Assembly: GCA_963675665.1 (NCBI GenBank)
Contig: OY776510.1
Coordinates: 3,328,001 to 3,392,000 of the forward strand
Direction of reading: 5' to 3'
Length of the DNA: 64,000 bases
Origin: Spirochaetia bacterium
Lineage (GTDB): Bacteria > Spirochaetota > Spirochaetia > UBA9216
The translations under genes and the position numbers were made by a program. Positions 6,889 to 14,873 of the stretch are shown here, piece by piece (within the stretch, counting starts at the first letter, position 1; every line of letters starts with the position of its first letter). The notes beneath the pieces were generated by a model. That model worked only from the letters and a program-made list of their open reading frames with translations, ran no database searches and was not told the DNA's origin.

Positions 6889-8880
6889 ATGAATGTCTCA
6901 AAACTTGTAAAAGACGACCCGTGGCTTGAACCTTATTCGCAGGTTATTAATACGCGAATTAATTATTACCTGAGTCAAAAAAAAAGGATTGAAAAGACTG
7001 AAGGTTCAACACGGGCTCATAAATATTATGGTGAACATTTAATCGAAGGCAATACGGTAATAAGAGAATGGGCGCCGAATGCAGCCCGGATTTTTCTGCT
7101 ATGTGATGCCGGGGGCTGGAATCCTGTTCCGGATTTAGAATTCAAACGGTTAAATGATTACGGCGACTGGCAGATAACGGTAAATGAAAATATATTCGGT
7201 CATGGAAGTCATTACAGAATTCTTGTGCGCTGGAACGGCGGGGAAGGCCAAAGAATCCCGGCATATGCACGAAGAGTAGTTCAGGACCCTGTAACTCATA
7301 TTTTTACTGCTCAGATATGGTTTCCAGAGAAAGAATACATATGGAAAAACAGTGCGTTAAAAAATCTTCGGGCGTATGATAAACCTCCGGTAATTTATGA
7401 AGCGCATATAGGAATGGCGAAAGAAGCGGGCGGCATAGGATCTTATGATGAGTTCAGATGTAATATCCTGCCGAGAATAATGGATGCCGGCTTTAATACG
7501 GTTCAGTTTATGGCTCTGATGGAGCACCCTTATTATGCCTCATTCGGATATCAGGTATCAAGTTTTTTTGCGGTATCATCACGCTACGGAACTCCGGAAG
7601 AGTTCAAAGCGCTTGTTGATGAATGTCATGGGGCCGGCATAAGGGTTATAATGGATCTTGTCCATAGTCACGCTGTTAAAAACGAGGTTGAGGGTATCAG
7701 CGTACAGGACGGAAGCGAATATCTTTATTTTCACAGCGGCCCGAAAGGTATGCATCCGGCGTGGGATTCAAGATGTTTTAATTACGGAAAACATGAAACG
7801 ATAAATTTTCTGTTGTCGAACTGCAGGTTCTGGATGGAGGAATACCGGCTGGACGGATTCAGATTCGACGGCGTTACGAGTATGCTGTATTTTGATCATG
7901 GCCTGGGAGCTTCCTTTGATCATTATGATAAATATTTCGGCCCCAATGTAGATAAAGATGCGCTGCTGTACCTGAGCCTGGCAAACGATTTAATACATGA
8001 AATAAATCCCGAAGCTTTAACGATAGCGGAAGATATGAGCGGAATGCCCGGAATGGGCGCCGCACAGAAAGACGGCGGTCTCGGATTTGATTACCGTCTT
8101 ACAATGGGATTACCGGATTACTGGATAAAAACCATTAAAGAAACTTCCGATGAAAACTGGAAAGCTTCAGGAATCTGGAATGTAATGAATAACAGACGAT
8201 TCAGCGAGAAACACATATCATACAGTGAAAGTCATGACCAGGCTCTTGTAGGAGACAAGACGATAATATTCAGGCTCATGGATGCTGCGATGTACAGCGA
8301 TATGACTGTTGATTCCAATTCTCTTGCTGCCGACAGGGGGACCGCATACTACAGGCTGATAAACCTGATTACATTTTCTATTGGTGGCGACGGCTTTATG
8401 TGTTTTATGGGAAATGAATTCGGTCACCCCGAATGGATAGATTTCCCACGTGAAGGAAACGGCTGGAGCTATCACTATGCCAGAAGACAATGGTCGCTGG
8501 CGGATAATGAAAAACTGCGTTATTCAAGGCTTCTTTCTTTTACGACCGACATGATAAAGAAATGTTCGGTTTCGCTTACGGGCGGTCCTGCTCAGCTTGT
8601 TCACTGCCACGATTCGGACATGGTTTTTGCATATGAAAGAGGAGGGCTGCTTTTTATTTTAAATATAAATCCGGAAAAATCTTTTACTGATTACGGCATA
8701 TGCGCAGCAGGGGGTAACTGGAAAATGGTTTTTAACACTGATGCAAAGCAATACGATGGACATCAGAGGCTGCCTCACGAGCTTCAGCTGAAATCAGTTA
8801 AACATCAGGATGGAATATGCAGGTTGAGTTTATATCTTCCCTCCAAAACAGGGATAGTATTAAAAAGGATTGAAAAATGA
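6889..8880 (+). CDS. glgB: 1,4-alpha-glucan branching enzyme, GH13_8 (eukaryote/Bacteroidetes-like) type
   Basis: REWAPNA, FRFDGVTSMLY, AEDMSGMP, YSESHDQALVGDKT, FMGNEFGHPEWIDFPR. Confidence 0.92.
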   Translation: MNVSKLVKDDPWLEPYSQVINTRINYYLSQKKRIEKTEGSTRAHKYYGEHLIEGNTVIREWAPNAARIFLLCDAGGWNPVPDLEFKRLNDYGDWQITVNENIFGHGSHYRILVRWNGGEGQRIPAYARRVVQDPVTHIFTAQIWFPEKEYIWKNSALKNLRAYDKPPVIYEAHIGMAKEAGGIGSYDEFRCNILPRIMDAGFNTVQFMALMEHPYYASFGYQVSSFFAVSSRYGTPEEFKALVDECHGAGIRVIMDLVHSHAVKNEVEGISVQDGSEYLYFHSGPKGMHPAWDSRCFNYGKHETINFLLSNCRFWMEEYRLDGFRFDGVTSMLYFDHGLGASFDHYDKYFGPNVDKDALLYLSLANDLIHEINPEALTIAEDMSGMPGMGAAQKDGGLGFDYRLTMGLPDYWIKTIKETSDENWKASGIWNVMNNRRFSEKHISYSESHDQALVGDKTIIFRLMDAAMYSDMTVDSNSLAADRGTAYYRLINLITFSIGGDGFMCFMGNEFGHPEWIDFPREGNGWSYHYARRQWSLADNEKLRYSRLLSFTTDMIKKCSVSLTGGPAQLVHCHDSDMVFAYERGGLLFILNINPEKSFTDYGICAAGGNWKMVFNTDAKQYDGHQRLPHELQLKSVKHQDGICRLSLYLPSKTGIVLKRIEK

Positions 8881-13258: not shown

Positions 13259-14873
13259 CAGGATATTATCTTCCGGTTACAGTTTTTCCGTAAATGTAGC
13301 GGGAAGGAATATTTTAAAAAGTCCGGAATTTATCAGGATGACCGAGACCGACATGCTTAAAATGTTCTTCAAAAACTTGGGGGAAATACCTGAAAGTAAT
13401 GGAATAAAGGACGTATTGCTGCACAGTAATATAAACGGCAACTGGACTTTTACCCGCTTTAAAAAAACGAAAGACAGTGAATATGAACTTGAAATAAAAA
13501 ACCCTCCCTGCGGTAAAGCTTCTTTCCGTTTTGCTGTGGAATGCAGGGATGGACTTTACTGGGAACCGGAAAAATACCATGAGTTACTGATAGATCCGGA
13601 ATCCATTAATTCGATTCGTCTGTATACAATTATACCCAATATAAACGGCAGGATAGACTCATGGAAAAGGATGCTGCCCGAAATTGCGGAAATGGGGTTC
13701 AACGCGGTTCATATTCTGCCTGTTACCGCAATGGGATCTTCGGAGAGTCCTTATTCAGCTTCGGAACTGTTCAGTCTTGATTATGTTTACGGAAATAATA
13801 TTCATTGTTTCAGGGAATTTGCTGAATACGCGGCCGAACTGGGTATAAAGATTTGCCTTGATATAGTACTTAACCATATCAGCAATGAAAACAGCATCTG
13901 CCTCGAACATGCGGAATGGATTATTCCGGACAGAACGCGTGAAGACGGAATGAAACGCGCCGGATGTTATCATCATGATAAATGGATCAGTTGGGAAGAC
14001 CTGGTGCTGCTTAATTACGATCATCCCAATCCTGAAATACGCGAAGAATTATATTCCTACATGCTGAAATACGTAATGTTCTGGATTGAGGCGGCGGGCG
14101 GAAGAAATGTAATGATGCGTCTTGATAACCTCCATTCGTCAAACCGGGAATTTATCAAATGGCTTCTGCCGGAAATTCGAAGGAAATATCCCGGCCTGCT
14201 GATTCTTTCAGAGTTCTTCGGAGCCGAAAACCATCTTGATGAAGCAGTTGTTGAATACGGCCTTAACCTGCTTACCGCCAACAGCTGGGAGTATCCTTTT
14301 GCGCCCATTCTGGAACGGTATATTGCGGGAATTCACAGCAGCGCCAAGCTAAGATACCTTGTCACACCTACATCGCACGACACGGAAGCCGCGGCAAAAC
14401 TGTTTGCAACTGCGGAATCCTCGATTCCAAGGTACGCAGTATGTGCCCTTATGGGAACGGGGATTACAGGGATAGTTCAGGGTTATGAATACGGGGTGCC
14501 TGAGAAAATAAACTTTATTGGCAGAAAGCCGGGGAAAGTCCCGGTAACGGAATATGATTTTAAGTCGTTTATAAAAAAGGTAAACAGCCTTTTAAAAAAC
14601 GAGCCGTGTCTTGGAAAAAAGGGAAATGCAGAGTTTTTTGATACGGGAAACGACAGTCTTATTTTATGCAGGAGAAGGGACAGTAACGGTCAGTGTCTTC
14701 TGATAGTTGTCAATCTTGATATATATAATGAACACCAGACACATTACAATATCATAGGTAAAGCTGAAACGATAATAGCTGAAAATGCCGAAACTGAATT
14801 TAACGAAATAGAAGACAAAATATTAATAAAACTGGGTGCATGCGGAGTTTGTGTAATAAGGACAAAAAGATGA
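13245..14873 (+). CDS. GH13 alpha-amylase-family protein resembling the 4-alpha-glucanotransferase domain of eukaryotic glycogen debranching enzyme
   Basis: GFNAVHILP...[32 protein letters not shown] (nucleophile Asp), LSEFF (acid/base Glu), TSHDTE; lies inside the glycogen operon. Confidence 0.75.
   Translation: [542 protein letters not shown]

Follow-up and report, generated by a model that had tools for sequence, protein, structure and literature searches.

The eukaryotic glycogen debranching enzyme (GDE; AGL/Gdb1, PDB 8ZEQ and 5D06) joins in one polypeptide a GH13_25 transferase (GT) domain and a GH133 glucosidase (GC) domain, which barely touch each other in the human protein according to passages of PMC12219210. 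Indirect debranching is regarded as a eukaryotic trait in parts of PMC4829877, PMC7965971, PMC12219210 and bioRxiv 10.64898/2026.09.25.754361; excerpts of PMC7965971 call the indirect enzyme selectively eukaryotic, and excerpts of PMC12219210 state that it is not conserved in bacteria. In the E. coli-type system, the place after GlgP is taken by a pair of enzymes, GlgX (GH13_11) for alpha-1,6 and MalQ (GH77) for alpha-1,4 linkages. Here we describe a glycogen operon from a member of Spirochaetota, in which the corresponding place would be held by a GH133 protein and a stand-alone GH13 protein, hereafter called GH13x. The families involved are unrelated to the E. coli ones at both steps, and GlgX and GH77 are missing. 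The operon lies in a stretch of 64,000 nucleotides (contig OY776510.1, positions 3,328,001 to 3,392,000, assembly GCA_963675665.1), referred to as the window, and all coordinates of the operon are those of the window.

The conserved gene pair is real and of a previously undescribed kind, and represents a variant of the known two-step system. As already noticed in the first-pass annotation, made from the letters alone, the two genes sit on either side of the glycogen phosphorylase gene:

8877..10826, + strand: GH133 protein, GDE_N plus GDE_C (Pfam)
10826..13258, + strand: glgP, glycogen phosphorylase (GT35), 810 aa (PF00343 1058 bits; TIGR02093 1131.6 bits)
13245..14873, + strand: GH13x, stand-alone GH13 protein, 542 aa (PF14701, PF00128)

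The overlap of start and stop codons, also remarked at that stage, amounts to 4 nt between the preceding glgB and GH133, 1 nt between GH133 and glgP, and 14 nt between glgP and GH13x; GH13x in turn overlaps the following glgA by 34 nt. The lack of glgX and malQ, originally reported for the operon, extends to the whole 5.15-Mb genome, in which profile searches found no match to GH77 and no GlgX above the cut-off, the top match of the GlgX model being glgB (51 bits, where the cut-off is 641). When a fungal GDE was compared with all six frames of the genome, only the GH133 and GH13x ORFs were matched, in two stretches each.

It is established that GlgP, a GT35 enzyme, cuts the outer chains of glycogen down to short stubs. 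We propose, with a probability of about 0.55, that GH13x and GH133 form a two-protein indirect debranching system, which acts on the phosphorylase limit dextrin and replaces GlgX and MalQ. After the trimming of outer chains to short stubs by GlgP, GH13x, plausibly a retaining enzyme (nucleophile D294, acid/base E323, stabiliser D379), would remove the outer maltooligosyl part from the non-reducing end, and transfer it to a second chain, with water as another possible acceptor, so that one alpha-1,6-linked glucose remains. The glucose stub would be hydrolysed to free glucose by GH133 (D419, E614), a step assigned to this protein because it lies close to the GC domain of eukaryotes, and GlgP could then resume. 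We infer the function of the pair from homology, intact catalytic residues, linkage and co-occurrence.

A search of the literature on bacterial GH13_25-like/GH133 debranching, with subscription journals and CAZy outside its range, returned no description of such a family. In the available portion of one survey (PMC4236520), GDE_C + CBM48 proteins only are considered, with no look for a stand-alone transferase homologue, and bacterial GDE_N-GDE_C proteins are treated as untested in sections of both PMC4236520 and PMC11046441.

GH13x and the transferase half of the eukaryotic enzyme

GH13x consists of a (beta/alpha)8 barrel between two beta-sandwiches, an N-terminal one (approximately residues 1-118) and a C-terminal one. 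The Pfam model of the eukaryotic transferase domain, PF14701 (hDGE_amylase), suggested early on as a check, matches the protein with 72.4 bits (cut-off 27), over profile positions 5-115 of 439 only; PF00128 matches with 42.8 bits. PF14701 exceeds the gathering score in 56/56 members of the GH13x family. hGDE_N was found at sub-threshold level only, in 4 of the 56 members (best E 0.037). The catalytic triad D294, E323 and D379 is invariant in all 56. D294 and E323 align with D526 and E555 of the human enzyme (PDB 8ZEQ), to which catalytic roles are assigned in passages of PMC12219210, and HD379 aligns with the HD of yeast CTHDNE. The likeness of motifs claimed in the first-pass annotation stands for the most part: the motifs quoted for GH13x are in the translation, and their human counterparts, VVAELF included, are in the 8ZEQ alignment, but the human motif quoted as ITHDNE was not seen, and the yeast enzyme reads CTHDNE. 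Conserved region I carries the residues NH, as in GDEs. The impression that the long eukaryotic insertion is missing proved correct: human residues ~234-446 have no counterpart in GH13x, and in 15 varied GDEs the stretch from profile position 234 to 250 is longer by 220-260 residues. GH13x differs from eukaryotic enzymes by an insertion of ~210-260 aa after conserved region I. No signal-peptide-like stretch was noticed at the N-terminus of GH13x, as judged by eye from the translation.

A homologue search identified 231 proteins at E <= 0.001 among 8000 candidates scored. The 120 homologues listed are all 443-600 aa long and all carry PF14701, and are named, where a name is given, either "alpha-amylase family glycosyl hydrolase" or "hypothetical protein". 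At least 260 stretches containing GH13x relatives were found, counting one genome per species, and the best 80 of the 260 come from Spirochaetota, Desulfobacterota (Syntrophales and others), Verrucomicrobiota/Kiritimatiellia, Bacteroidota, Fibrobacterota, Planctomycetota, Armatimonadota and Nitrospirales. The cultured Syntrophus buswellii DM-2 is among these best 80. GH13x is a member of an unnamed bacterial GH13 family, present in about eight phyla. Full-length members are rare in spirochaetes, having been found in 4 of the 201 genomes sampled; another 44 contain only a GH13 relative of ~430 aa, which lacks the N-terminal domain and resembles the GH13_48 proteins 4GKL and 3DHU.

Taken alone, scores and folds leave the affinity of GH13x ambiguous. 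In single-sequence phmmer searches, GlgE (51.5 bits) and human GDE (50.2 bits) are on a level. With a profile built on the 56 family members, the top PDB match is human GDE (95.8 bits, E 1.8e-26), and this match starts from the N-terminal domain; yeast GDE (70 bits), and GlgE and 4GKL (68 bits), follow. The GH13x N-terminal region is collinear with that of six GDE representatives, from profile position 20-34 onwards. The AF2 model of GH13x (pLDDT 92.9) gives Z values of 33-39 with many GH13 structures; its residues 19-542 superpose on residues 5-867 of the Candida glabrata GDE with VIA Z 37.0 and rmsd 4.0 A over 506 residues.

The sister relationship emerges from trees, which were built on the shared catalytic and C-terminal region, with three GlgE sequences and few GH13 subfamilies sampled. 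In every tree, GH13x and eukaryotic GDEs are split from GlgE, GH13_48-like, fused bacterial and other GH13 proteins. The grouping received an SH-aLRT value of 98 with 55 rows and 432 columns (LG+C20 PMSF, quick search), FastTree support of 0.990 with 53 rows, two very long outgroup rows having been dropped, and, with 48 rows and 424 columns including 17 varied GDEs, FastTree support of 0.987 and a fast IQ-TREE SH-aLRT of 99.3. The 48-row set was obtained by adding 15 varied GDE representatives, and for those 15 of the 17 GDE rows taxa are not named; 4 of the 15, and P0124, were checked by Pfam, and all show the full GDE architecture. GH13x and GDEs are both monophyletic (99 and 100 with 55 rows, 99.3 and 100 with 48 rows), and GH13x is sister to, not nested within, the eukaryotic clade. 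Long-branch attraction would be expected to draw the long GDE branch towards other long stems, away from GH13x. In approximately unbiased (AU) tests, the 29-row set rejects the groupings of GH13x with GH13_48 (p 0.003), of eukaryotes with GlgE (0.020), of eukaryotes with fused proteins (0.007) and of GH13x with fused proteins (0.013). The position of GH13x as sister to the eukaryotic GDE transferase half is well supported by these alignments but not secure, as alternatives are rejected in the 29-row set only. The GH13 protein stood apart from GlgE and ordinary amylases in all four tree analyses, and among the proteins sampled the GH13x family appears to be the nearest kin of the eukaryotic GH13_25 domain. 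It is not GH13_25 as known, being a sister clade, unfused and devoid of the insertion.

Several of these data weigh against an indirect debranching role, or against the kinship on which it leans. The match to PF14701 is not exclusive to GH13_25, because it spans the first ~115 positions only and GlgE-type proteins carry PF14701 too. The raw scores of the family HMM are highest for GH13_48-like amylases (127-184 bits), which by this measure lie closer to GH13x than GDEs do (72-112 bits); bacterial fused proteins score 78-128, GlgE 80-86 and other GH13 proteins below 30. Foldseek and VIA place GlgE level with GDE, or slightly over it (Z 38.9 versus 37.0). The AU test does not reject GH13x+GlgE with either 29 or 48 rows (p 0.058 and 0.069), and in the 48-row set no alternative is rejected (p 0.069-0.153, delta lnL 20-34). 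Moreover, a transferase and a hydrolase cannot be told apart by sequence.

The fold and AU results bear on the hypothesis that GH13x is a GlgE-like maltosyltransferase, making alpha-1,4 chains from maltose-1-phosphate, and hence biosynthetic rather than degradative. GlgE structures (5CGM, 4U33, 3ZSS) are the top fold matches of GH13x (Foldseek E 2e-34; VIA rmsd 5.9 A over 505 residues), the three-domain layout and the DN.H signature of region II are shared, the phmmer scores are about equal, and GH13x adjoins glgA. GH13x is nevertheless very probably not GlgE, because it lacks the N/S domain PF11896. This domain is not matched by GH13x in 51/51 genomes, one of which has a separate true GlgE of 703 aa, and was detected at sub-threshold level only, in 3 of the 56 family members (best E 0.0049). 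In all trees GlgE stands apart as a clade of its own, and the aligned GlgE has QC in region I where GH13x has NH. The window genome encodes five GH13 proteins (TreC-like, oligo-1,6-glucosidase-like, sucrose phosphorylase, glgB and GH13x), none of which is a TreS above the cut-off, and GH13x is linked to the degradative glgP and to GH133. A GlgE-like activity is thus regarded as very improbable.

The HMM scores bring in a different possibility, that GH13x is an ordinary exo-acting maltogenic amylase, similar to GH13_48 enzymes, working on glycogen or imported dextrins with no specific dependence on GH133. Thermotoga neapolitana AmyB (4GKL) and the Lactobacillus plantarum protein 3DHU are maltogenic amylases according to passages of PMC11239784. 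The ~430-aa proteins of this type give the top out-of-family scores, the highest for the catalytic and C-terminal regions, and their fold is close to that of GH13x (VIA Z 37.6 for 3DHU, 36.2 for 4GKL). However, GH13x is not GH13_48, because the latter constitutes a clade of its own (SH-aLRT 99) and GH13x has an extra N-terminal domain; the shorter proteins reside in the 44 spirochaete genomes which lack GH13x. The grouping of the two, rejected with 29 rows, is not rejected with 48 (p 0.141). The N-terminus of GH13x is not signal-peptide-like, and the steady presence of GH133 in GH13x genomes (78/79, see below) fits poorly with an independent amylase. We consider this explanation improbable, albeit less so than a GlgE-like function.

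Two metagenome proteins of 1093 and 1104 aa (P0122 and P0123) combine a GH13_48-like domain (residues ~16-404) with a complete GlgE-type module including PF11896. The GH13x HMM gives 142.5 bits on the GH13_48-like domain of P0122, and a much weaker score on P0123.

The GH133 partner and the route of debranching

The GH133 ORF matches GDE_N with 180 bits, and GDE_C with 303 bits over its full length (positions 4-367 of the 367 in the profile). The catalytic residues of the human GC domain, D1261 and E1502 according to passages of PMC12219210, have their aligned counterparts in D419 and E614, which are both invariant in 14/14 relatives; all five catalytic residues are therefore conserved across the GH13x and GH133 proteins of the window. 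A GH133 profile picks up human (138.9 bits) and yeast (124 bits) GDEs, the next matches being trehalases with 24 bits at most. Residues 6-649 of the GH133 model (pLDDT 85.9) superpose on residues 894-1527 of the C. glabrata GDE, with VIA Z 37.1 and rmsd 3.8 A over 462 residues. The comparison with the yeast structure recommended in the first-pass annotation turned out favourably, as GH13x and GH133 models together cover the C. glabrata GDE collinearly from one end to the other (residues 5-867 and 894-1527, respectively). In contrast to the eukaryotic protein, the window GH133 has a prokaryotic GDE_N, and sequence profiles align GDE_C only (298-656 with 1035-1473 in hhalign). In sequence, hhalign detected no resemblance of GDE_N to the central region of the eukaryotic protein, although the structural alignment does reach back to residue 894.

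The genes are linked in part of the loci. GH133 and a phosphorylase precede GH13x directly, in that order and on the same strand, in 17 of the 80 best loci out of 260: 15 are from spirochaetes and have the gene order of the window, one is from Nitrospirales and one from Planctomycetota. In the last two (L084:2667-11401 and L088:2904-11593), the series is GH133, a GT4/GT5 synthase, a GH57 protein of ~400 aa, phosphorylase and GH13x. Most of the remaining GH13x loci have unrelated neighbours. GH133 is nonetheless found elsewhere in 50/50 genomes where no glycogen gene adjoins GH13x, and 12 of another 13 GH13x genomes have it as well, the sole miss being a metagenome-assembled genome whose completeness is not known. 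Overall, GH133 accompanies GH13x in 78/79 genomes, which answers in the affirmative the co-occurrence suggested at the start. Among 151 genomes sampled at class level around Syntrophus, 75 have GH133 and 18 have GH13x; all of these 18 have GH133, compared with 57 of the 133 genomes without GH13x (Fisher p 1e-6, a value inflated by kinship of the genomes).

In the same sample, 13 of the 75 GH133 genomes carry GDE_C within single ORFs of 1429-1553 aa. Three such ORFs analyzed by Pfam have the organization GH13 + GDE_N + GDE_C, hence the same two modules in the same order as the eukaryotic enzyme. They lie in glycogen loci, beside phosphorylase and glycogen synthase genes, and in 1 of the 3 cases beside a glucokinase gene as well. 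Over 497 columns, the GH13x profile can be aligned with the first ~590 residues, N-terminal domain included (hhalign probability 99.8). The distribution is complementary to that of the split pair: 13 genomes have the fused form, 18 the split one, none both. Apart from being one polypeptide (~1430-1550 aa), the fused form differs from the split pair in that it gives no match to PF14701 at E 1e-5, and in that its GH13 part is a clade of its own, sister neither to GH13x nor to eukaryotes; the eukaryotic-fused grouping, rejected with 29 rows, is not rejected with 48 (p 0.116). No fusion of GH13x itself with GH133 was found among the 4 matches in a search for longer proteins, which is weak evidence.

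These associations suit equally well a direct route, in which GH133 would cut whole short branches, for example maltotetraose, as GlgX does, and GH13x would recycle the freed malto-oligosaccharides, either in a MalQ-like manner or as an exo-hydrolase. An archaeal precedent exists, and tells against the indirect role: according to passages of PMC9142091, the Thermococcus gammatolerans amylo-alpha-1,6-glucosidase (7VMA), the one assayed prokaryotic GDE_N-GDE_C enzyme found in this analysis, debranches maltodextrin and glycogen directly, releasing whole chains of medium length (degree of polymerisation 13-24). The GH133 model shares the two-domain fold of this enzyme (VIA Z 32.0, 503 residues aligned). 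The precedent is weighted lightly, though not dismissed, because the sequence relation between the two is not significant (12.1 bits, E 0.51); the window GH133 is far closer to eukaryotic GC domains. GH77 is missing in 41 of 50 GH13x genomes (9/50 have it; GlgX is above the cut-off in 1/50), as expected if GH13x did the work of MalQ; the scarcity of both GlgX and GH77 also speaks for the indirect system. Furthermore, NCBIfam holds a model of a bacterial GlgX/4-alpha-glucanotransferase fusion (NF011083), so that the fusion of a debrancher with a transferase does not by itself imply indirect debranching. On the other hand, GH13x is sister to a transferase acting on a branched polymer, and the glucokinase gene adjoining one of the three fused loci hints at a glucose product. 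On balance, direct debranching by GH133 seems unlikely, though it is the strongest competitor of the indirect route.

The two-protein indirect system has also to be reconciled with two findings on gene content. In the class-level sample, a GH13 partner of either form, split or fused, is missing from 44 of the 75 GH133 genomes; GH133 therefore does not need GH13x, and can evidently work with something else. Second, the window genome contains two GH57 genes, one of the branching-enzyme type. The other, located 230 kb from the operon (near 3.10 Mb of the contig), encodes a protein of 669 aa with AmyA-A_glucT_m and AmyA-gluTrfs_C domains, as in the Thermococcus-type amylase/4-alpha-glucanotransferase, and has no NCBIfam match. 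In view of its domains, this protein is a second possible transferase.

A few unusual ORFs were met in the course of the survey. GH77 lies within an open frame of 1405 aa (G046:C1:126352-127758), and GDE_C within one of 1072 aa (G367:C26:23099-24202), both seemingly additional glycogen enzymes with several domains. In Syntrophales-type genomes, one GH133 gene looks interrupted by two TGA and one TAA inside the match (G012:C11:144685-145788), and one GH13x gene by one TGA and one TAA (G010:C1:1986257-1987843); the interruptions could be due to decay or assembly error.

Operon layout and genome context

The window is part of a single contig of 5.15 Mb, 96.4% complete. Six genes follow each other on the + strand from ~5.5 to 16.3 kb, in the order glgC-glgB-GH133-glgP-GH13x-glgA, as deduced from the ORF list and from Pfam and NCBIfam matches. 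The features not yet listed are:

5548..5577, + strand: promoter-like site, TTGCAA, 18-nt spacer, TATAAT (10/12 matches), directly 5' of glgC
5543..6880, + strand: glgC, glucose-1-phosphate adenylyltransferase (NF002772 597.9 bits, cut-off 537)
6889..8880, + strand: glgB-like branching enzyme, CBM48 + GH13 + Alpha-amylase_C (Pfam, NCBIfam)
14840..16324, + strand: glgA, ADP-glucose glycogen synthase (GT5; TIGR02095 516.2 bits, cut-off 328)

The glgC ORF is listed from a GTG at 5543. The NF002772 match begins at residue 19, and AAGGAG precedes an ATG at 5597, which is likely the true start. The promoter-like site is weak evidence, because such sites occur in the region at chance level (28 against 24.2 expected); the terminator scan was likewise at chance level. 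The product of glgB is seemingly a divergent branching enzyme, since the best GlgB models give 288 bits, under their cut-offs. The true start of glgA may fall just past the stop of GH13x, because the TIGR02095 match begins at residue 13. The genome has a single GH133 gene. The operon is flanked by genes unrelated to glycogen, both on the opposite strand, involved in lipoate synthesis upstream and coding for a MinD/ParA-like ATPase downstream.

Two further observations concern other regions of the window. An ORF of 735 aa (19861-22068, + strand) includes a PTA_PTB domain (residues 15-348) and a full butyrate kinase (residues 378-730, TIGR02707 449 bits), and looks like a fusion of both steps leading from butyryl-CoA to butyrate. 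At 2973-3976 (- strand), two neighbouring ORFs, 173 and 160 aa long, both correspond to the N-terminal half of the ArsP_1 permease profile (positions 14-145 and 8-134 of 294); a pair of half-size paralogues seems likelier than a split gene.

Possible bearing on the origin of eukaryotic debranching

Both catalytic modules of the eukaryotic enzyme are homologous to GH13x and GH133, which share with it the GT triad, the GC acid/base pair, the collinear N-terminal beta-sandwich and the end-to-end structural tiling, and differ from it in being the products of two genes split by glgP. A bearing of the pair on the origin of the eukaryotic enzyme is plausible. The idea put forward in the first-pass annotation, that the pair may resemble the pre-fusion ancestor, finds support in trees for the GH13x half, but no resolved eukaryotic link is available for the other half. 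In a GDE_C tree (FastTree, 53 rows, 381 columns), the eukaryotic branch has a length of 2.0 and its placement a support of 0.00-0.26; the attachment point of eukaryotes is not resolved, and the GH133 tree bears neither way on ancestry. We tentatively entertain, while leaning towards doubt, the notion that the eukaryotic debranching enzyme came from the fusion of two genes, of which the GH13x and GH133 genes are extant bacterial relatives.

If this is so, the indirect mechanism had its origin in bacteria, where at least eight phyla still use it. The rule by which indirect debranching belongs to eukaryotes and direct debranching to bacteria would be wrong, and the debranching mechanism serves as a domain marker in papers on the evolution of storage polysaccharides. 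As a possible source of the eukaryotic enzyme, a widespread bacterial family sister to GH13_25 and tied to GH133 is a concrete candidate that can be tested, and the pair offers a compact model, of two proteins, for the enzyme whose defect underlies glycogen storage disease III. For the bacteria themselves, the pair would explain how glycogen is used by the many species which lack both GlgX and MalQ.

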